Source: Patescibacteria group bacterium
Lineage (GTDB): Bacteria > Patescibacteriota > Patescibacteriia > 2-01-FULL-39-33
Length of the DNA: 64,000 nucleotides
Assembly (NCBI GenBank): GCA_041650895.1
Contig: JBAZKF010000001.1
Span: 359,156 to 423,155 of the forward strand
Direction: 5' to 3'
Below are positions 14,793 to 38,843 of this stretch, in pieces. The notes beneath the pieces were generated by a model. The model was not told the origin of the DNA. It did not search any database and saw only the letters and a list, made by a program, of their open reading frames with translations. The position numbers were made by a program, and so were the translations under genes. How positions within the stretch are numbered: position 1 is the stretch's first letter; each line of letters opens with the position of its first letter.

Positions 14793-15899
14793 ATGATTAA
14801 CGCGCCTTATTTAATAGCCTTGTCACAAATAAGTTTCTTAGGTCCTTCGCGTCTCAGGCGGCTGATTGATTTTTTTTCTGACCCCAAAGACGCTTGGACC
14901 GCCAAACTGCCGGAATTTTTGGCTGCAGGATTCAGTGAAAAGGAAGCGACTGATATAATTATAAAACGCCAGGAAATCAATCCGGAAAATGAATTAAAAC
15001 GATTAGAACAAGCCGGCATTGGATTCATCACTTCTGACGAAGCCGCTTATTCAAAATTGTTGAAAGAAATCTATAACACTCCCCCGCTATTGTATTATCG
15101 TGGCAACATCAATTGCCTGAACATGCCTTGCCTGGGCGTCGTCGGCGCTAGAAAACATACGGCCTACGGCCAGCAAGCAACAGAAAAGATTGTCGCCGGC
15201 ATTGCTCAGGCCGGAATCACAGTAATCTCTGGCTTAGCTTTGGGCATTGACGCTTTAGCGCACAAGATAACTTTGGATCAGGGAGGATTGACGGCGGCCG
15301 TGCTGGGGTCAGACTTAAGCTGGGATAATATCGGGCCTAAGACTAATTTCCATTTAGCTGAAAAAATCTTGGAATCAGCCGGCTGTTTGGTTTCGGAGTT
15401 CCCCTTAGGCGTCAGTGCTAATCGAGCGACTTTCCCCCAACGCAACCGCCTTATCTCCGGCTTATCTTCCGGCGTATTAGTCATTGAAGCCGGCGAGAGC
15501 TCCGGTTCATTGATTACCGCCGATTACGCTTTAGAACAAAATCGCGACGTTTTCGCCGTACCCGGAAGCATCTTTAGCCCCTACTCCGCTGGCACCAATA
15601 ATCTGATAAAAAAGGGGGCTAAGCCAGTCACCGGATCGGATGAGATTATTGAAGAGTACGGCTGGCAAAAACTGCCAAAAATAACAGTAACTGCTACAGA
15701 AAACGAACCGACTGAAACAGAAAAAGAAATTTTGGGGTACCTCTCCGCTGAGCCTCTTCACCTTGACAAAATCGTTCAAGTATGCAATATTAGGATTAAT
15801 ACTCTTTCGTCTTTGTTTATGATAATGTCTATCAAGGGATTAGTAAAAGACATCGGCGGAGGAAATTATATTAGAATCTATAAAAACAAAGACTCATAA
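14793..15899 (+). CDS. dprA: DNA processing protein DprA (Smf)
   Basis: Contains the Rossmann-like core LGVVGARKHTAYGQ…VISGLALGIDALAH; lies upstream of topA as in many bacteria. Confidence 0.85.
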   Translation: MINAPYLIALSQISFLGPSRLRRLIDFFSDPKDAWTAKLPEFLAAGFSEKEATDIIIKRQEINPENELKRLEQAGIGFITSDEAAYSKLLKEIYNTPPLLYYRGNINCLNMPCLGVVGARKHTAYGQQATEKIVAGIAQAGITVISGLALGIDALAHKITLDQGGLTAAVLGSDLSWDNIGPKTNFHLAEKILESAGCLVSEFPLGVSANRATFPQRNRLISGLSSGVLVIEAGESSGSLITADYALEQNRDVFAVPGSIFSPYSAGTNNLIKKGAKPVTGSDEIIEEYGWQKLPKITVTATENEPTETEKEILGYLSAEPLHLDKIVQVCNIRINTLSSLFMIMSIKGLVKDIGGGNYIRIYKNKDS

Positions 15900-16018
15900 A
15901 ATAAAAAGTTTGATAACGGTTTATCCCATCTTTGCCGGCCCCGACCTTAATAACCTTAGGGAAGTTCGACTCTTTTGTTTCTTAATTTAATCAATACGCA
16001 AAAATATTAATTTTTCTT

Positions 16019-22773: not shown

Positions 22774-22845
<72 letters not shown>

Positions 22846-22934
22846 CTAACCAATCACTGATTAATAATTACTAATTACGAATATAATTATTTTAATTCGT
22901 AATTTGAAATCCGTAATTTGTAATTGACATTTGT

Positions 22935-23007
22935 TGCGGGGGGCGGATTCGAACCGCCGACCTCTTGGTTATGAGCCAAGCGAGCTGCCGGACTGCTCTA
23001 CCCCGCG
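22935..23007 (-). tRNA. tRNA with CAU anticodon and a C1·A72 mismatch (initiator-like tRNA-fMet)
   Basis: Reverse complement reads CGCGGGGTAGAGCAGTCCGGCAGCTCGCTTGGCTCATAACCAAGAGGTCGGCGGTTCGAATCCGCCCCCCGCA. The acceptor stem 5' C pairs against 3' A, as in bacterial initiator tRNA. Confidence 0.7.
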
Positions 23008-23052
23008 ATAATATTTTATTTTCCATCTCTCCCTAAATAGATGAGATTGATG

Positions 23053-23134
23053 TGCCCGAGGAGAGACTCGAACTCTCACATATTGCTATACACGATTTTG
23101 AGTCGTGCGCGTCTACCAGTTCCGCCACTCGGGC
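23053..23134 (-). tRNA. tRNA-Leu (CAA), type II with long variable arm
   Basis: Reverse complement reads GCCCGAGTGGCGGAACTGGTAGACGCGCACGACTCAAAATCGTGTATAGCAATATGTGAGAGTTCGAGTCTCTCCTCGGGCA. Confidence 0.8.
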
Positions 23135-26191: not shown

Positions 26192-26252
26192 AGAATCACG
26201 ACGAGAGAGGTTCTCTAAGGGTTTCGTCCCGACGAGAGCCTTTTTCATTTGT
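26192..26252 (+). ncRNA. Candidate small RNA (about 60 nt) driven by the orphan promoter, with nested stem-loops and a 3' T-run
   Basis: acgatagaatcacGACGAgagaggttctctaagggttTCGTCccgacgagagcctttttc: imperfect hairpins followed by TTTTT. Confidence 0.3.
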
Positions 26253-26781
26253 GTTTATTTTTATACTCCAACTTACCCTTCAAAGCATTTAAAAAAATCA
26301 AAATATTATTTGCCGAGGAACTTAAGCGATCCAAAAGACAAGAATAATTATTTTGATTCGGAATTAACACTCTCTTGAGTTTTGAGTTATTAATTAGATA
26401 TTCTACCAAACAATAAAAATCACCATCACCGGAAACAATAATGGCCTTATCATAATTAGAATATTCAATCATGGCGTGCAATACCAATTCGGCATCTACG
26501 TTACCCTTAACTGTGCCATCAGCTAATTCCAGTGTCGGTTTAAATACGCAAATATAGCCATACTCCTGTAATTTTGTATACATCGCTTGATTACCGGGTT
26601 TAAAGCCGATGAATAGGAAGGCCTTTTCAATGCCATATTTATCTTTAAGATAAATCCTGAATCTTCTATAATCAAGCTGCCAGCCGGAATAAATCTTCCG
26701 GTCTTTTTTATAAATGTCTTTTGACAAGCTTTGATATAAATTATTGCTGTCAATAAAAGCGTAGTTTTTTCCTTGTGGCAT
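26245..26781 (-). CDS. NYN-domain (LabA/DUF88, PIN-like) putative RNase, immediately downstream of the DGR RT on the same strand
   Basis: NYN hallmarks YAFIDSNNLY…, KAIIVSGDGDF; 178 aa. Confidence 0.65.
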   Translation of the reverse strand: MPQGKNYAFIDSNNLYQSLSKDIYKKDRKIYSGWQLDYRRFRIYLKDKYGIEKAFLFIGFKPGNQAMYTKLQEYGYICVFKPTLELADGTVKGNVDAELVLHAMIEYSNYDKAIIVSGDGDFYCLVEYLINNSKLKRVLIPNQNNYSCLLDRLSSSANNILIFLNALKGKLEYKNKHK

Positions 26782-26801: not shown

Positions 26802-27788
26802 TTAGCAAGTATAAGCCAAATTAGCAATTTTTCGTTGTAATTTATAGCTCTGGCCGTGACTCAATAAACCCAAATATGAATTCATGGTTTCCGGGTTATG
26901 ATTTTTCCTCACTCGCCTGAACATCCTTCTTTTACTCGCCGTCCGAAACACCCGATGATCAAAAAAATTCACCCAACCCAGAAAGTCTAAGCCGGGACTT
27001 AAAGTTTTGATAAATAGCTTATCGGGATGAAGCGTCAGTTTCATTTTATCTCTCAAATAAGCATCAACCGATGGAATTATTTTTTCCAAATAATTTTTAT
27101 CATCAGCCATAATCACGAAGTCATCGGCATAGCGGATATAATATTTTACTTTCAGTTTATGCTTAACAAATTGATCAAATCTGTTCATATAAATATTAAC
27201 CAATAACTGCGAAGTTAAATTCCCCAACGGCAAACCTCCGTTAAAACTGTCAATCGCCTCGTCTAATAAACCCAAAATCTTTTTATCCGGAATATACTCG
27301 GCCAGGATATTTTCCAATATCCCATGATCGATATTGGCAAAAAATTTCCTGATGTCACCCTTTAAAATCCAACAAGTGTGGGTGTTATTCTGGCTGGCTT
27401 TGTAAGCAAATTTCTTGAATCTGGCCAAGGCCTTATGCGTGCCCTTGCCCAGCCGGCAGGAATAAGAATCGACGATGAAAGTCCGGTCAAAAAACGGATA
27501 CAAAATCCGATAAATCGCATGATGAACCAACCTATCACTGACCGACGCCTTATGGATTTGCCGCGACTTGGGATCGCAGATCTTAAAGGCCTGGTAGCCG
27601 CCATGGCGATAAGCGCCGGTTGCCAAATCCCGATGCAATGCGATAAGATTATCCATAAGGCGCAATTGGAATTCCTGCACGTCTTTTCTATTCCTTTTGC
27701 CCCTGACAAACTCCTGCCAAGCCAACAATAAATTATCAAGACAGATAATCTCTTCAAAAGTATGGCTCAACTTGATTTTCCCGTTCAT
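26802..27788 (-). CDS. Diversity-generating retroelement (DGR) reverse transcriptase
   Basis: RT domains with a YADD catalytic box (YIRYADDFVIM) and motif 4 LPLGNLTSQLLVNIYM (the DGR-specific xGxxxSQ, not the QGxxSP of group II/retron RTs). 328 aa, no maturase or endonuclease domain. Adjacent TR/VR pairs are present. Confidence 0.9.
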   Translation of the reverse strand: MNGKIKLSHTFEEIICLDNLLLAWQEFVRGKRNRKDVQEFQLRLMDNLIALHRDLATGAYRHGGYQAFKICDPKSRQIHKASVSDRLVHHAIYRILYPFFDRTFIVDSYSCRLGKGTHKALARFKKFAYKASQNNTHTCWILKGDIRKFFANIDHGILENILAEYIPDKKILGLLDEAIDSFNGGLPLGNLTSQLLVNIYMNRFDQFVKHKLKVKYYIRYADDFVIMADDKNYLEKIIPSVDAYLRDKMKLTLHPDKLFIKTLSPGLDFLGWVNFFDHRVFRTASKRRMFRRVRKNHNPETMNSYLGLLSHGQSYKLQRKIANLAYTC

Positions 27789-27815
27789 AATGATTCCTTT
27801 AATTTACCCCCCCCC

Positions 27816-27825
27816 CAACGGAAAA
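27816..27825. repeat. C10 homopolymeric tract between the divergent RT and avd1 genes
   Basis: cccccccccc in an AT-rich intergenic/5' region; a candidate slipped-strand phase-variation site. Confidence 0.6.
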
Positions 27826-27834
27826 TTTATCCCG

Positions 27835-28140
27835 TTGATTCAAAAAACCAAAACGCTATACATAGTATGGCATGGTTACTACCAATCTCTACCCAAAACC
27901 CATAAATACTCATTGGGTCAAAAAATCGACATCTTCTTTATTGAGGCGATTGAAGCTATGGCTACCGCCAGTTTCCTGCCACCACAAGCCAAACCGCCTC
28001 ATATCTGCCTAGCAATTCAAAAAATTGATTTGATAAAAATCATGCTAATGATTCTATGGGAGATAAAGGCGATTGATAATAATAAGTATTTAAATCTATC
28101 GCAACCACTAGACGAAATCGGCCGGATGCTAGGCGGCTAG
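27835..28140 (+). CDS. Avd-like four-helix-bundle (23S rRNA IVS protein family) accessory protein, copy 1 (start uncertain; no in-frame ATG until 27958)
   Basis: The C-terminus …LWEIKAIDNNKYLNLSQPLDEIGRMLGG matches the Avd/four-helix-bundle family C-terminal helix (…EIGkmLggW). It is paralogous to copy 2 with synonymous third-position differences in this frame. It is on the strand opposite to the RT and TR. Confidence 0.45.
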   Translation: MIQKTKTLYIVWHGYYQSLPKTHKYSLGQKIDIFFIEAIEAMATASFLPPQAKPPHICLAIQKIDLIKIMLMILWEIKAIDNNKYLNLSQPLDEIGRMLGG

Positions 28141-28149
28141 TACAACAAA

Positions 28150-28185
28150 CTGACAAAACAAAACTCCCCGGATAAACTCAGGGAG
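28150..28185 (-). terminator. Hairpin CTCCC-N12-GGGGAG plus T-run immediately 3' of TR1 (minus sense): DGR RNA 3' structure or terminator
   Basis: Minus-sense sequence …cgcaac tctctttatttttCTCCCtgagtttatccGGGGAGttttgtttt. The same element follows TR2. Confidence 0.5.
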
Positions 28186-28199
28186 AAAAATAAAGAGAG

Positions 28200-28320
28200 T
28201 TGCGGAGCGCAGCCGGATTATCGACGTTGAAGTCGTTATCAAGCCAGTTGTAGTTCCAGTTCCATCTGTCGCCATTCCAGTACAGGTAACGCACATACAG
28301 GTTGTCGTCCGAGTTGCGAT
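28200..28320 (-). repeat. DGR template repeat TR1 (cognate to VR1 at 28702-28822)
   Basis: 121-nt match to VR1. All 20 mismatches fall on TR adenines in the minus sense (TR AAC, GAC, TAC, AAT or AGA codons against G, D, C, R or F codons in the VR). Minus-sense TR1 encodes …RNSDDNLYVRYLYWNGDRWNWNYNWLDNDFNVDNPAALRN. Confidence 0.9.
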
Positions 28321-28576
28321 TTTCGCAAAATTCCGCCTAAACCACCATCCGTTGATCCGCCGACTGGCGGAATCTCCAGATTGAATCTTATGCGTGAGCT
28401 AAACTCACATAGAACATTGCGCCAAGTATCTTTACTTTAATTAGGCATTAATATATTACGCTACTACTGACATTGATCAGTAATATTCTGAATAATACTA
28501 ACACCGGCTGAGGTAGCGGATAGCCGTAACCAACCGCGGATTTACCTGTGGCTATTTACATAATAGCAGAATAATT

Positions 28577-28619
28577 TGAAAAAATAAATCCTGCACAAGT
28601 CAGATGACCGATGCAGGAT
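28577..28619 (-). terminator. Intrinsic terminator of target gene 1 (hairpin atcctgca…tgcaggat plus T-run on the minus strand)
   Basis: An 8-bp perfect stem followed by TTATTTTTT in the minus sense. Confidence 0.6.
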
Positions 28620-28697
28620 ATTTTGTACAAAATTTAGGGCTAAGGACTAAAGTTTAAAATTTCAAGAACTGAAAATCAAAATTCTAAGTCCAAAGGA

Positions 28698-29255
28698 CTA
28701 CTTGCGGAGCGCAGCCGGATCACCGACGCCGAAGCCGCCATCAAGCCAGCCGTAGCCCCAGTCCCATCCGCCGCCACCCCAGCACAGGTAACGCACAAAC
28801 AGGCGGTCGTCCGAGTCGCGATAAATAGTCCCCCAAAAGAAAATACATTTGCCTTTCCATTCTTCCGGAATCAACTCGAGATGTGCGAGTAAATAGTCAA
28901 GAACATTAGCGTTCAAGACCAGCTTGCCGGCCAACAACTTACGCAAAGCGTGACCTTTGACGATGTTATTCTTCTGGTCATTGGCCAGATAAAGCTCAAT
29001 CAATGCCGGATTCCACTCCAGTTGACCGCCCTTCTGGTGTTCTTCAACTTTCCAGCCGGACGGAACGAAAGGATGAACGTCGCAGTCAATAATGTACTTG
29101 GTCACGATGATTTCCGCCAAGCCATGCAGCACTTTCTTGAATTCCGCCAAACTCTTAAACTGCTGGAGCTTCGTCATCTCCTCCGGCGTATAACCAGCAG
29201 CTTCAAAAGCATCCATTACCTTGTTGGCTTGGCCTACCGAGTAAAGCGTGGACAT
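28698..29255 (-). CDS. DGR target (variable) protein 1; C-terminal VR at 28702-28822
   Basis: Probable start MSTLYSVGQ… with RBS AGGAGA; the track ORF extends to 29285 via GTG. The C-terminus …FVRYLCWGGGGWDWGYGWLDGGFGVGDPAALRK differs from the TR1-encoded peptide only at Asn/adenine-containing codons. It is paralogous to target 2 (shared core …VLDYL…IPEEWK…FFWGTI…). Confidence 0.85.
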   Translation of the reverse strand: MSTLYSVGQANKVMDAFEAAGYTPEEMTKLQQFKSLAEFKKVLHGLAEIIVTKYIIDCDVHPFVPSGWKVEEHQKGGQLEWNPALIELYLANDQKNNIVKGHALRKLLAGKLVLNANVLDYLLAHLELIPEEWKGKCIFFWGTIYRDSDDRLFVRYLCWGGGGWDWGYGWLDGGFGVGDPAALRK

Positions 29256-29338
29256 AGTCCATCTCCTTTTTGCGGACACGTTCACTTTGGAACCCGTCCA
29301 GTTTGAGGTGCGAATTGGCCTTGCATACAGAGCAATTC

Positions 29339-29367
29339 CAATATATTAAGTATAGCACGTATTATAT
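29339..29367 (-). promoter_or_regulatory. Promoter of target gene 1: TTGACA-17-TATACT (minus strand), with a TTTATCCAC motif just upstream
   Basis: Reverse complement reads TTGACAaaatatataatacgtgcTATACT. Confidence 0.5.
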
Positions 29368-29455
29368 ATTTTGTCAATAGATTTATCCACTCTACCAACT
29401 AACTAATTATTTTTATCTAAATTTAAACAAAAAATCACCACTATCTATTGGGATA

Positions 29456-29701
29456 ATGGAAGCAATTGCCACGGCCAGTTTCCTGGACAAACTGAGTAAG
29501 TCGCCGTATGTGGAAACAGCGATCAGAAAAACTGATATTTTAAAAATATTATTATTACTTTTGTGGGAGACAAAATCATTAGATAATAATAAATATTTGG
29601 CCTTATCAATTAAGATTGATGAGGTGGGCAAAATGCTTGGCGGCTGGAAAGGACAATTACTAAGTAAAAACTCCCCCGACAATAAAGCGGGAGAGAAATG
29701 A
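29456..29701 (+). CDS. Avd-like four-helix-bundle accessory protein, copy 2 (81 aa)
   Basis: MEAIATASFL…LWETKSLDNNKYLALSIKIDEVGKMLGGW…; resembles the BPP-1 Avd C-terminus (…EVGRILGSW…). A 40-nt upstream element (aaatttaaacaaaaaatcacc…ttgggataATG) is shared with a truncated third copy at 31508-31556. Confidence 0.5.
   Translation: MEAIATASFLDKLSKSPYVETAIRKTDILKILLLLLWETKSLDNNKYLALSIKIDEVGKMLGGWKGQLLSKNSPDNKAGEK
29663..29695 (-). terminator. Hairpin CTCTCCCGC-N-GGGGGAG plus T-run immediately 3' of TR2 (minus sense), homologous to the element after TR1
   Basis: Minus-sense sequence …gcaactcacttcatttCTCTCCCgctttattgtcGGGGGAGttttta. Confidence 0.5.
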
Positions 29702-29707
29702 AGTGAG

Positions 29708-29829
29708 TTGCGAGAACCGCAGCCGGATTATCGACGTTGAAGTCGTTATCAAGCCAGTTATAGTTCTCATTCCACTGGCTGTCGTTCCAATACAAGTAAC
29801 GGACGTAGAGGTTGCCATCAGAGTTGCGG
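29708..29829 (-). repeat. DGR template repeat TR2 (cognate to VR2 at 30184-30305)
   Basis: 122 nt, with no indels against VR2. The minus-sense sequence encodes RNSDGNLYVRYLYWNDSQWNENYNWLDNDFNVDNPAAVLA against the VR2 peptide RRSDGRLYVRCLFWSGSQWRGCYSWLDSGFVGGSPAAVLA. Most mismatches fall at TR adenines, and four non-adenine mismatches cluster at the 3' end (IMH/IMH*-like). Confidence 0.85.
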
Positions 29830-30065
29830 TTGTATGTGGCGCGCCGCCGATATCACTGCCCGTCGAATACTCTCTGGGCTGGATCTTATTTGTGATCTTA
29901 AATCACTTAGCGCTCCGCACCAAGTATCTTCATTTTTGAAGTTTCTACAGGCGCCACACTGCCTGAAGCCTTGACCGCAGGCATTCTCGGCGACTGGACA
30001 CTGGATTCGGTGGCAAGCAGCCATAACCGCTTGCTGATATTCACCTAATACCTTTTTTATTTTAG

Positions 30066-30101
30066 CATAAAAAATAATCCCGAACCATTGCTGATTCGGG
30101 A
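30066..30101 (-). terminator. Intrinsic terminator of target gene 2 (ttcccgaa…ttcggga plus T-run)
   Basis: A 7-bp stem followed by TTATTTTTT in the minus sense. Confidence 0.6.
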
Positions 30102-30169
30102 ATATGTTCAAAAAAATTGCATTAAGGTCAAATTTCCCAAGGATCCATATAGATCCAGGAAATCAAGAC

Positions 30170-30847
30170 CTAAGCGCTGATACTTGCGAGAACCGCAGCG
30201 GGGCTGCCGCCGACGAAGCCGCTATCAAGCCAGCTATAGCACCCACGCCACTGGCTGCCGCTCCAAAACAAGCAACGGACGTAGAGGCGGCCATCAGAGC
30301 GGCGGAAAATTGTGCCCCAGAAAAAGATAAAGATAATATTTCCTTTTTCATTTTTTTCCTTCCACTCTTCGGGGATGTACTCCTGATTGGCCCTAAGAAA
30401 GTCCAGAACGCTTGCCGACAACACCGGCCGGCCGTCAAGTTCTTTACGTAGTTCATGGCCGACAATAAATCGACCGTTAACCTGGAGCGTTGAGCGATAC
30501 AAAACGACTTTCTGTCCGTCAATGTATAAACCGTCAAATCTCTTTTCAATTGAAATCTTGCCCTGGCGGGCATGTTTCTCAACTGTTGCGTCAGTAAATG
30601 GCGGTCGCGGATCATTGTCCGTATCAATTACCGCCCGAAGGATCGGCGTTGTCTGGCGCAGAAATTCCTCGCCGATTTCCTTGAGTTTCTCAACAAAAAA
30701 ACTCTTGCCCGGACCAGTCGCCCAATCAATCACTTCGGCGCCGACCTTGATTTTCTTCAGAGTTGCGGCTATCAGCGAGAATAGATTGGCGAGCGCCGCC
30801 ACAAACTGCCCGACTTCCTTCCAATTCAAACTCTTTTTCGTCGACAT
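30170..30847 (-). CDS. DGR target (variable) protein 2; C-terminal VR at 30184-30305
   Basis: 225 aa; paralogous to target 1, and its C-terminus matches the TR2 product apart from differences at Asn codons. Confidence 0.85.
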   Translation of the reverse strand: MSTKKSLNWKEVGQFVAALANLFSLIAATLKKIKVGAEVIDWATGPGKSFFVEKLKEIGEEFLRQTTPILRAVIDTDNDPRPPFTDATVEKHARQGKISIEKRFDGLYIDGQKVVLYRSTLQVNGRFIVGHELRKELDGRPVLSASVLDFLRANQEYIPEEWKEKNEKGNIIFIFFWGTIFRRSDGRLYVRCLFWSGSQWRGCYSWLDSGFVGGSPAAVLASISA

Positions 30848-31003: not shown

Positions 31004-31098
31004 TCCACTGAACTTTTTATCCGTGATTCAATGATTAATAGCCTATAATTACCAAAAAACAATAAAAAAGCCATCCGTCAACGGGTGGCTAAAGAACC

Positions 31099-31431
31099 TT
31101 ATTTACTCTGCAGACATGGTAACGCCGAAAGCCATTTATCAAATTTCCTATAAATCCGCCCCAAAAACCTGTTCCATTTTTTCTCACCATAAAAATCTAT
31201 GTACCTTTGCCTAAATTCAAGAAAAGACACTCTGGGAGCTAACCGTGGAACTCCAATCATCGCCTTGATCCTATTGGGATATTCTTTGATAAATCTCCTG
31301 GGGAATCGTTGGTGAATAAAAGCAATCGTATACGGGTCATCATCATGATTGCCCAATAACGGAACCACGAGCCTTTCATAAAGATCTTGACCATGCAACC
31401 CAATAAATTCAGACTTACTCATTACGTCCAT
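31099..31431 (-). CDS. Hypothetical 110-aa protein with its own TTGACA-17-TATGCT promoter and GGAGG RBS
   Basis: Has an ORF, an RBS and a promoter at 31450-31480 (reverse complement). The ORF shows no similarity to the DGR targets. Confidence 0.45.
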   Translation of the reverse strand: MDVMSKSEFIGLHGQDLYERLVVPLLGNHDDDPYTIAFIHQRFPRRFIKEYPNRIKAMIGVPRLAPRVSFLEFRQRYIDFYGEKKWNRFLGRIYRKFDKWLSALPCLQSK

Positions 31432-31580
31432 GACGCCCTCCTTTGTTTTTATTGTTTCTTAGAAAGCATAGACGACTTTAGAAAAAATGTCAATAATTTT
31501 GTTACTATTCAAATTTAAACAAAAAATCACCGCTATCTTTTGGGATAATGATGATTTTTAGTCAATCTCTGATTTTATAA

Positions 31581-36007: not shown

Positions 36008-36395
36008 GGGGATGTTTTGCTTTGATAGAGATAATGTTTTCCTATTAGCAAACCGAGCATGGCGGCAAACTCGTTAATCCGTCGCCACAGGCAAAAATGC
36101 CAAAAACATCTTAGCTAAAGTCCAATCTGCTTTTAGCAGCCTGGCTTTGGCTCCTGTTCTCGCTTAATATCGAGAACCATCGCCGCGCCCATTCCCGGTA
36201 AGCGCTAAGCGGTGTTATATTATCGGGATCGCCACTGACGTCGCCAGAGCGCCCTTGGTCAAACTTTTCTGGATCGCTTAAGGATTTTTTGCCGCTTTTT
36301 CAGTCCTTAAGTCAGAATATAAAACGGCTAAGTTTGTATCACTTTAGGGGATAATTTATTTCTAGACAGGGGCTCATTACCCCTCATCTCCACAC
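36008..36395 (+). ncRNA. ssrA: Candidate tmRNA (ssrA) downstream of smpB
   Basis: The 5' GGGGATG pairs with the 3' CATCTCC, followed by a discriminator A (acceptor stem). An internal ORF …AKNILAKVQSAFSSLALAPVLA ends with TAA inside the loop of the hairpin gttctcg-cttaatat-cgagaac. A T-arm-like GGGG-ctcatta-CCCC lies just before the 3' end. The length, about 388 nt, is typical. The region is a 575-nt non-coding gap. Confidence 0.45.
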
Positions 36396-37916: not shown

Positions 37917-38843
37917 TTAAAAATCAAACTTCCGGAAAAGACAGACGCGCAAATCAAAACTCGGTCTGCTGTGTTTGTGATTTTCGACACGGAGGCCGTA
38001 AGCATGGAAAAAGCCGACGGAAACGAACCAGTTAAAACTATCAGTCACGCTTGAACAATGTTGCCAATCTTCAGCTAAACGCTCTCCATTGATCATGAAA
38101 TTAGTCAGAATCGCTTCGCTAAAGATGGCGGGATTGACGCGCTCGTAAAGCGATTCGGGCTTCTGCGATTCCGCTTCCCGTTGGCCCCAATTGTGCCCAA
38201 CCCATCGACCCTTAAAGTCAATCAGATGGTAGCCACTGGCCGGCTGATGCTTAACCCAATAACCCTCTTTGTCGTGCAACCACCAGGTATAACCACTATG
38301 AAAACATGGCTGTTTTTCTTTCTCCCCGCCCTTACCGCGGATTTCGTACTGCTGGCGCAGGGATTTGCCGCTGACAAACACCAGGCGCCAATCAGTCCGG
38401 CCGGAGTAATTTTCAGCGGCCGCCTGTTTCAGTGTTGCTTTGGTGTAACGGATAGGTCCGTTAACAATCGGCTGACGCCAAACTCTAGCTGTGGCACGAG
38501 CCATGATCACCTTATTGGCACCAAGGATTCTAATCGCCTGTCGTACTGACAGATTAATCTGCACCGTTGCTTCATTTTGTGCTTGTGTTTGTATTGGATT
38601 AATCTGCACCGTTACTTCATTCCGCAATATGGCAGCGATCATAGCCGCCTGACCATCTCTTGGCACATCAGCCAAAACACGATTCAATACGGCTTCAAGC
38701 TGGCCGAGGTCAATATCGCCATATTTAATCGGTTTCCCGGCCTTGGCAGCTAAAAGCCGCGCCGCAGGCACGCCCAAGTGCTCAAGCAGAGCATAAACTT
38801 CATGTAATGTAAAAGTTCTGCAATCTTTCTTTTCATCTTCCAT
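37917..38843 (-). CDS. Hypothetical protein, moderately GC-rich, with an internal 22-bp direct repeat and a W/G/Y-rich segment
   Basis: 308 aa; RBS AAGGAGA. The consensus promoter TTGACA-17-TATAAT lies at 38960-38990 (reverse complement). attaatctgcaccgtt[g/a]cttcatt is repeated at 38559 and 38606. Confidence 0.5.
   Translation of the reverse strand: MEDEKKDCRTFTLHEVYALLEHLGVPAARLLAAKAGKPIKYGDIDLGQLEAVLNRVLADVPRDGQAAMIAAILRNEVTVQINPIQTQAQNEATVQINLSVRQAIRILGANKVIMARATARVWRQPIVNGPIRYTKATLKQAAAENYSGRTDWRLVFVSGKSLRQQYEIRGKGGEKEKQPCFHSGYTWWLHDKEGYWVKHQPASGYHLIDFKGRWVGHNWGQREAESQKPESLYERVNPAIFSEAILTNFMINGERLAEDWQHCSSVTDSFNWFVSVGFFHAYGLRVENHKHSRPSFDLRVCLFRKFDF

Follow-up and report, generated by a model that had tools for sequence, protein, structure and literature searches.

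A cluster of non-adenine mismatches in a two-template retroelement of a Patescibacteria genome as the probable footprint of template-to-template conversion

A 64,000-nucleotide stretch from the genome of a Patescibacteria group bacterium (GCA_041650895.1, contig JBAZKF010000001.1, positions 359,156 to 423,155; hereafter the window) holds a diversity-generating retroelement (DGR) with one reverse transcriptase (RT), one intact Avd encoded on the strand opposite the RT, and two cassettes, each consisting of a target gene, a structured RNA and a template repeat (TR). In cassette 2 the template, TR2, and its variable repeat (VR), VR2, differ at four clustered non-adenine positions near their 3′ ends, which a preliminary description of the sequence read as the directionality determinant known as initiation of mutagenic homing (IMH) in the VR and IMH* in the TR. 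Our comparison with related loci does not bear that reading out; rather, the four mismatches are probably the footprint of a short conversion, 11–43 nucleotides (nt) long, in which the template of cassette 1, TR1, overwrote part of TR2, the 3′ end of VR2 not having been rewritten since.

Four copies of a 122-nt repeat lie on the minus strand within 28198-30305 and pair as TR1 with VR1 and TR2 with VR2. Coordinates throughout are those of the window, and repeats and repeat positions are read on the minus strand.

28198-28319, minus strand: TR1, the cassette 1 template and putative source of the patch in TR2
28700-28821, minus strand: VR1, within target gene 1
29708-29829, minus strand: TR2, template repeat with 32 adenines and seven in-frame AAC codons
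30184-30305, minus strand: VR2, variable repeat encoding the final ~40 codons of target 2 (...RRSDGRLYVRCLFWSGSQWRGCYSWLDSGFVGGSPAAVLA)
29724-29734, minus strand: non-adenine cluster on the TR2 side, repeat positions 96-106
30200-30210, minus strand: the same cluster on the VR2 side, reading GGCGGCAGCCC, common to the orthologous VRs of a relative, L002
30184-30199, minus strand: terminal 16 nt of VR2, GCTGCGGTTCTCGCAA, the same as the end of TR2; the TR1/VR1 end differs (GCTGCGCTCCGCAA)

TR2 and VR2 align over their 122 nt without gaps and, as first described, differ in an adenine-specific manner: 20 of the 24 mismatches fall on the 32 adenines of TR2 and four on the 90 other bases (Fisher p = 3.5e-11), the adenine substitutions being 14 to G, three to C and three to T. 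Nearly all of the adenines (31/32) occupy codon positions 1 or 2, and VR2 ends 12 nt upstream of the stop codon, at the 3′ end of the target open reading frame (ORF). These differences, the AAC codons, the motifs of the RT and the presence of Avd likewise uphold the identification of the two repeats as the template and variable repeat of a DGR. The non-adenine mismatches (TR2>VR2) are T>G at 96, T>C at both 100 and 103, and G>C at 106, one of them non-synonymous (GTC>GGC) and three at third codon positions. They are clustered towards the 3′ end rather than scattered, again as claimed (P = 0.0016 for four random non-adenine sites spanning no more than 10 nt), and positions 1–95 contain 18 adenine-to-any-base (A-to-N) differences and no others. 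The cluster had been assigned to the last roughly 20 nt: its four mismatches are real, but it sits 17–27 nt from the repeat end with A>G changes at 99 and 102 interleaved, and the TR2 string, which reads GTCGATAATCCGGCTGCG, had been quoted with GTC omitted. Beyond it come 16 identical bases, GCTGCGGTTCTCGCAA, after which TR2/VR2 homology ends; judging from their sequence, these could serve as a cassette-specific 3′ match. Cassette 1, as the preliminary description noted, lacks such divergence: every one of the 21 mismatches inside TR1/VR1 falls at an adenine.

How unusual cassette 2 is becomes apparent from its clade. We fetched 80 related loci for comparison, aligned 40 clade TR/VR pairs and compared their terminal 17 nt, counted from a conserved proline codon, in 39. 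In all aligned pairs the homology extends as far as ...GCAA and no further. Beyond this point the TR has a conserved CTCTCTTCATTTCTCTCCC and then a hairpin, and the VR has GT and a stop codon, in many cases with an AGTCC-TT(T)-GGACT hairpin after them. Over the terminal 17 nt, TR and VR agree fully in 30 of the 39 pairs, as they do in cassette 1, and show one or two differences, most of them at adenines, in the others, while identity between loci is only 66%. A-to-N changes occur inside the terminal GCAA/GCAG itself in six loci (L023, L019, L084, L064, L070 and L031), so that information appears to flow from TR to VR over the whole repeat. This comparison indicates that a difference between IMH and IMH* is no feature of the clade and that transfer covers the repeat to its end; since TR and VR are normally identical to ...GCAA, the discrimination of donor from recipient must, on this evidence, sit in the flanks. 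A large clade of Patescibacteria DGRs thus keeps TR and VR identical to the last base, with discrimination left to structures in the flanking RNA or DNA. Among the aligned pairs, cassette 2 alone has non-adenine mismatches clustered at its 3′ end. The suggestion that the two cassettes differ may well be right as regards their homing history, but the roles are the reverse of those implied, cassette 1 representing the clade norm and cassette 2 the exception. The end of cassette 1 reads ...GCG CTC CGC AA(G TAG), encoding PAALRK* as against PAAVLAS* in the rest of the family (28198-28215 and 28700-28717); the indels responsible are identical in TR1 and VR1, and are therefore further evidence that TR and VR are homogenized through their terminal bases.

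Were the cluster an IMH/IMH* determinant, the GC-rich VR2 sequence GGCGGCAGCCCCGCTGCG would be a recipient-specific initiation element and the AT-richer TR2 version an IMH*, fixing the direction of transfer and protecting TR2. Several features have the expected look. The mismatches cluster at the 3′ end, the VR2 version is the richer in GC, its bases at 96, 100 and 106 are conserved in orthologues, and VR2, reading GGCGGCAGCCCCGCTGCGG, is followed by a VR-specific inverted repeat (30171-30125), as in the Bordetella phage (PMC5758913):

30125-30171, minus strand: imperfect inverted repeat (hairpin) starting at the stop codon of target 2, z = -3.9

Surveys label imperfect, GC-rich TR/VR stretches of this sort, after the last A-to-N site, as IMH/IMH* (PMC5758913), and by that rule positions 103–122 would be so labelled. 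Yet the feature is absent from the 38 other clade pairs, including cassette 1, which is served by the same RT and Avd. The stretch does not mark a boundary, interleaved as it is with A-to-N sites at 99 and 102 in a clade where such changes continue up to the last repeat bases. It is not conserved in recipients either: VR2-type VRs are hypervariable there at codon positions 1–2, including the central codons of the three known to us, and the mismatch codons are the four that precede the conserved PAAVLAS motif, codons that are hypervariable throughout the family. Silent changes at third codon positions account for three of the four mismatches. TR2 equals TR1 at every informative site, to which the difference between TR2 and VR2 can be traced. 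We regard an IMH/IMH* determinant as an improbable account of the cluster.

The origin of the TR2 bases is best seen in the alignment of the two templates, which share the following block.

29718-29760, minus strand: maximal tract of TR2 identical to TR1, positions 70-112; the minimal tract is 29724-29734 (96-106, GTCGATAATCCG context)

TR1 and TR2 are identical over 42 nt (AACTGGCTTGATAACGACTTCAACGTCGATAATCCGGCTGCG), as against 73% identity over the preceding 70 nt, and begin to differ again immediately afterwards; the identity of their 3′ blocks is the highest among 741 pairs of clade TRs. Throughout the shared block VR1 has the same non-adenine bases, which marks the block as native to cassette 1. 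TR2 carries the TR1 base at all five informative sites (96, 98, 100, 103 and 106), an agreement with P = 0.004 if the five had changed independently. The VR2 bases at 96, 100, 103 and 106, for their part, recur in the orthologous VRs of L002, a syntenic Candidatus Buchananbacteria relative that has lost the RT, avd and TRs and kept two VR2-type genes (P0002, four of four; P0007, three of four). The agreement of TR2 with TR1, and of VR2 with the VRs of this relative, at the five sites points to a template that has changed rather than an IMH that has evolved.

The VRs themselves preserve signs of the earlier template. The three of VR2 type differ from one another at 14–18 of the 32 TR-adenine sites and at 3–4 of the 90 others, where the remainder of the gene has diverged by 11.6%, and so appear to have been written by a DGR after the lineages split; this concentration of differences at TR-adenine sites, of which 17–18 of 32 differ in the orthologous VRs, supports past variation of VR2. 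Position 98, which is G in both TR1 and TR2, is G, C or A in the three VRs, the sole three-state non-adenine site, so that the template that wrote them would have had A there. Their two central codons (GGC/CAC/AGC and AGC/GAC/GAT) fit what an AAC AAC template would produce, not the present GAT AAT, and at the cluster the TR of L006, which among RT-bearing relatives is the closest to cassette 2, has AAC TCG AAC AAC. The adenines of the shared block are intact, which excludes VR1 or mutagenized cDNA as donor and leaves TR1 DNA. DGR-mediated homing of TR1 cDNA into TR2 was considered as the source of the patch and rejected, all of the block adenines being unmutated.

We infer the direction and mechanism of the conversion, as well as any present activity of the element, along the following lines. 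Adenine-mutagenized cDNA made from TR2 would replace VR2, the last 40 codons of the 225-residue target. Each template RNA consists of the structured 5′ domain (~220 nt), then the TR, then a CU-rich linker that is predicted to pair with that domain, and finally a hairpin and a U-run. An older TR2 would have read about GGC AAC AAC CCC at the cluster, until the TR1 stretch GTC GAT AAT CCG overwrote it; VR2 would retain the output of the older template, GGC GGC AGC CCC. That VR2 still holds the older sequence implies that no rewriting has reached its 3′ end since the conversion, and this is compatible with a recent conversion, with a shifted integration boundary or with a silent cassette.

Some considerations weigh against conversion from TR1. 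The ancestral TR2 is a reconstruction, a pre-conversion TR2 having been found in no genome that we looked at. The 3′ block is conserved across the clade (mean 75%, with other maxima of 93% between unrelated TRs), part of the TR1/TR2 identity is ordinary constraint, and the informative sites number only five; at one of them, 106, the TR of L006 has G, as TR2 does. A tract of 11–43 nt is short. The allele evidence that bears on the activity of either cassette since the conversion is at the level of assemblies. Finally, cDNA integration that ended upstream of 96 could let the mismatches persist in an active cassette, much as at an IMH boundary.

With an integration boundary shifted in this way, TR2 cDNA would join VR2 upstream of 96, so that positions 1–95 are diversified and the 3′ end stays frozen. 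The confinement of the cluster fits, positions 1–95 having A-to-N differences and no others; the RNA elements of TR2 are intact (below), and in the Bordetella system the 3′ transfer boundary lies inside the GC-rich part of the IMH (PMC5758913). Transfer in the present clade normally reaches the repeat end, however, and recent diversification has left no trace in the available alleles: VR1 and VR2 each have one and the same sequence in three assemblies, and both target proteins form single-member clusters, although exact-protein look-ups return identical sequences by construction. One metagenome scan found only a relative of the L002 or L007 type. We judge an active cassette with a shifted boundary unlikely, if less so than an IMH/IMH* determinant.

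The TR1-like patch might also have been created in silico, by repeat collapse or a cross-over during assembly, and Logan contigs of SRR8542065 do break inside the block that TR1 and TR2 share. Unitigs anchored in cassette-2-specific sequence nevertheless read through positions 96–100 (L094) and 83–122 (L093), and an independent Joint Genome Institute (JGI) contig, L092, shows the same sequence across VR2, TR2 and target 1, its single difference lying outside the repeats, near the contig end. An assembly artefact is accordingly the least credible of the explanations that we weighed, and a very improbable one.

The RNA elements around both TRs bear on whether TR2 is still a working template.

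29830-30059, minus strand: structured RNA domain directly 5′ of TR2, 46/50 consensus pairs kept
28320-28549, minus strand: structured RNA domain directly 5′ of TR1, 46/50 pairs kept, with compensatory differences from the cassette 2 copy
29928-29935, minus strand: upstream strand, AAATGAAG, of a long-range duplex bracketing TR2
29696-29703, minus strand: downstream strand of that duplex, CTTCATTT, in the clade-conserved TR 3′ flank CTC(T/A)CTTCATTTCTCTCCC
29671-29694, minus strand: hairpin and T-run 3′ of TR2, TCTCCCGC...CGGGGGAG; the TR1 equivalent is 28164-28185
30078-30101, minus strand: terminator-like hairpin and T-run after target gene 2

An RNAalifold consensus of the 5′ domain, built from 40 loci, contains 50 pairs, including a 12-bp long-range stem, and compensatory double changes are seen at 42 of the 50. 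The copies in cassettes 1 and 2 are ~70% identical to each other, and the number of pairs that each keeps compares with a clade median of 48. The domain, ~220 nt long, includes an invariant single-stranded AAAATGAAGATACTTGGT and is present too in relatives with a different target (L086-L089). A second conserved single-stranded segment, AAATGAAGA, is complementary to TCTTCATTT directly 3′ of the TR and forms a predicted 8-bp duplex in cassette 2; variants are compensatory across loci (for example TAAAGA/TCTTTA in cassette 1), and partners from the same locus pair better than permuted ones (0/5000 permutations). This partner-permutation test replaced a formal count of duplex pairs, for which any choice of register would have had to be fitted to the structure; likewise, exact or one-mismatch matches were used to count copies of the RNA motifs, a regular-expression census at two mismatches being too permissive. 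A scan of the window and 11 loci against Rfam gave no match at the gathering score. A partial RT-7 match in cassette 1 (28439-28492; 26.6 bits against a gathering score of 116.8) was set aside as chance or distant resemblance, and was not reproduced in seven related loci at E <= 0.5. Nor did we retain a 97-residue, cysteine-rich ORF (29818-30111) as a spacer protein: similar peptides occur in differing frames and are broken by stops across loci, and a structured RNA is preferred.

Downstream of the repeats, TR and VR part ways. The TR flank has CTCTCTTCATTT or CTCACTTCATTT and a hairpin, each TR being followed by CTCCC...GGGAG and then a T-run; by analogy, the hairpin 3′ of TR2 could be terminator-like or an Avd-binding stem-loop of the TR2 RNA. 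The VR flank has GTATCAGCGCTTAG, the stop codon and an inverted repeat; in VR1 and many clade VRs this is the AGTCC-TT(T)-GGACT hairpin, the TR 3′ flank being different and conserved, and the inverted repeat after target 2 is kept downstream of the P0007 VR in L002. Since both TRs have the conserved, covarying 5′ domain and the 3′ hairpin, TR2 is probably a still-selected, competent donor RNA that uses the RT and Avd1 in trans.

The proteins of the locus are those of a DGR.

26802-27788, minus strand: DGR reverse transcriptase, the sole RT, 328 residues, with LGNLTSQ (residue 188) and YADD (residue 220)
27790-28140, plus strand: avd1, encoding the sole full-length Avd (116 residues); its start codon abuts that of the RT
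28698-29285, minus strand: target gene 1; 185 residues (P0172) from the database start, an ATG at 29255
29456-29701, plus strand: avd2′, a remnant with the C-terminal half of Avd only (bAvd profile positions 65-104/107)
30170-30847, minus strand: target gene 2, an intact ORF of 225 residues (P0001, MFA5124562.1)

Read along the minus strand, the order is glyS, a 505-bp insertion with a 110-residue ORF, target 2 with VR2, a hairpin and terminator, ~230 nt of structured RNA, and TR2; then avd2′ (plus strand), a copy of the target-upstream region, target 1 with VR1, structured RNA and TR1; and last avd1 (plus strand), the RT and an NYN-domain gene. The RT matches RVT_1 (E = 1.1e-22) and has both the [I/L]GxxxSQ motif of DGR-type enzymes and YxDD; its relatives number >8000, wherever the source is named all are from Patescibacteria, and identity ranges from 60 to 83%. 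Avd1 aligns with bAvd over positions 4-102/107 and with NF033474 over 2-101/104 (E = 8.7e-14), scoring under the curated cut-off of each profile while covering it nearly in full. Target 2 (pLDDT 85 in the AF2 model) belongs to a Patescibacteria-wide family of DGR targets with the C-terminal pattern FFWGTIYR...WL...PAAVLAS and 277 relatives among GTDB species representatives. The locus is thus a genuine chromosomal Patescibacteria DGR, and cassette 2 a genuine donor/recipient pair. About 40 of the 80 related loci have the order target, 350–500-nt spacer, TR, avd on the reverse strand, and RT; cassette 1 with the RT is therefore the standard element of the clade, and cassette 2 is an additional unit ending in an avd remnant, which is cut off at ~29446-29458, at the junction with the copy of the target-upstream region.

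Other observations concern the surroundings of these genes. Throughout the clade, avd and RT diverge with no intergenic space, their start codons abutting or overlapping (27788-27790 in the window; 8001-8017 in L086), so that, from the sequence, the RT promoter must lie inside or beyond avd. The NYN-domain gene (a predicted RNase; 26245-26781, minus strand) directly follows the RT in the window and in syntenic relatives (L001, L086 and L088), and is located elsewhere in L002, which has no RT at the site; its position beside the RT may be mere synteny or may reflect an accessory role. Relative to L002, the 505-bp insertion (31006-31510) splits the region between glyS and target 2, and its ORF (31099-31431) has no family match. 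A 52-nt piece of that intergenic region (31499-31550) is repeated, at 87% identity, upstream of target 1 (29407-29458), where it adjoins a strong promoter-like site (29377-29349). Farther off, the window has a transfer-messenger RNA gene beside smpB, plus three tRNA genes (36008-36395, plus strand; 22774-23134, minus strand).

The truncated avd2′ raises the question of whether cassette 2 is simply a dead duplicate, in which the non-adenine differences are drift. Besides the fragmentary avd2′, a lack of target 2 allelic variants, both in a 15-billion-protein collection and in the three assemblies, would agree with decay, as would the example of L002, which retains VR-bearing genes with no RT or TR nearby. 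Drift, however, would scatter changes, and none of the 82 non-adenine sites beyond the 11-nt cluster is changed; VR2 holds the ancestral bases rather than new ones; the ORF of target 2 is intact; the 5′ RNA domain keeps its pairs through compensatory changes relative to the cassette 1 copy; and Avd1 and the RT are able to act in trans. We hold decay to be about as improbable as an IMH/IMH* determinant.

The relatives show how such loci are remodelled. The VR-bearing genes of L002 (2618-3349 and 10001-10678) are orphan VRs, at a site that lacks RT, avd, TR and an adjacent NYN gene; no RT, avd or TR was found within 10 kb of either VR. An RT 83% identical to that of the window from the same sample (L087) was discounted as a partner, belonging as it does to another organism and accompanying a different, 631-residue target. 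P0007 shares its N-terminal ~60–85 residues with a 308-residue protein encoded beside rplT in the window (37917-38843, minus strand), its C-terminal part being a target-2-like VR domain, and by sequence looks like a domain swap. In L086 (5244-9616) and L088 (5147-9597), whose RTs are 83% and 76% identical to that of the window, the DGR occupies the same chromosomal site (glyS ... RT-NYN-peptidase M16) with a different target of 631–671 residues and an unrelated TR/VR that also ends at GCAA, so that the target has been replaced at a fixed locus. L046 has a second VR/TR pair ~7 kb from its first target gene (15402-16009), and multi-cassette arrangements may recur in the clade.

If conversion from TR1 is correct, a 3′ cluster of non-adenine TR/VR mismatches, routinely labelled IMH/IMH* by survey pipelines, can be an accident of template-to-template conversion. 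To our knowledge, conversion of a patch from one TR to another has no prior description. The locus is, besides, a natural DGR with two templates and one enzyme, in which the mismatch patch is a built-in marker of where cDNA integration ends, and the conserved 5′ RNA domain offers a handle for reconstituting a DGR of the candidate phyla radiation (CPR). A wider proposal, which we put forward as a tentative whole, is that a single RT/Avd pair serves two separately addressed template RNAs, matched to their VRs by cassette-specific ends (GGTTCTCGCAA and GCTCCGCAA); that the templates exchange patches by gene conversion, moving codon programmes between cassettes; and that the ~220-nt covarying domain with its long-range duplex is an undescribed RNA family organizing the Patescibacteria DGR ribonucleoprotein. 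Patch exchange would then re-specify which target residues are randomized.

Other DGRs of Patescibacteria, on which Paul et al. 2017 reportedly also worked, are likewise small chromosomal cassettes with unannotated targets, arranged target-TR-avd-RT in the ~40 loci above. The present element is a member of their clade, which corresponds to the 'CPR set' of Wu et al. 2018 (PMC5758913) and to DGR clade 2 of Roux et al. 2021 (PMC8144416). It differs from the others in having two tandem target-RNA-TR units and an avd remnant, a second VR/TR pair occurring only in L046 among the 80 loci. A DGR with two TRs has been reported from Stenotrophomonas sp. SKA14 (Yan et al. 2019, PMC6642488); that system, too, has more than one TR per DGR and several VRs, but comes from a different phylum and diversifies a different target family, DUF1566.

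With the DGR of Bordetella phage BPP-1 (mtd-avd-TR-brt), the element shares an RT with Avd, adenine-specific transfer from TR to a VR at the 3′ end of the target, an AAC-rich template, an inverted repeat after the VR and RNA elements flanking the TR. Here, by contrast, avd lies on the opposite strand, a ~220-nt structured domain precedes the TR, the identity of TR and VR normally extends to the last base, no IMH/IMH* difference being maintained, and one RT serves two TRs. Cryo-electron microscopy of the BPP-1 DGR RNA revealed two elements, a stem-loop 3′ of the TR that binds Avd and a cPRT Stop duplex formed by sequences on either side of the TR, and similar elements were predicted for CPR DGRs (Handa et al., bioRxiv 10.1101/2023.10.23.563531). 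The hairpin just 3′ of each TR and the predicted 8–10-bp duplex of AAATGAAGA with TCTTCATTT, with its compensatory changes, resemble these. Unlike in BPP-1, the upstream strand of the duplex is separated from the TR by ~100 nt and belongs to a large covarying domain of 50 pairs, for which the BPP-1 description has no counterpart and Rfam no model.

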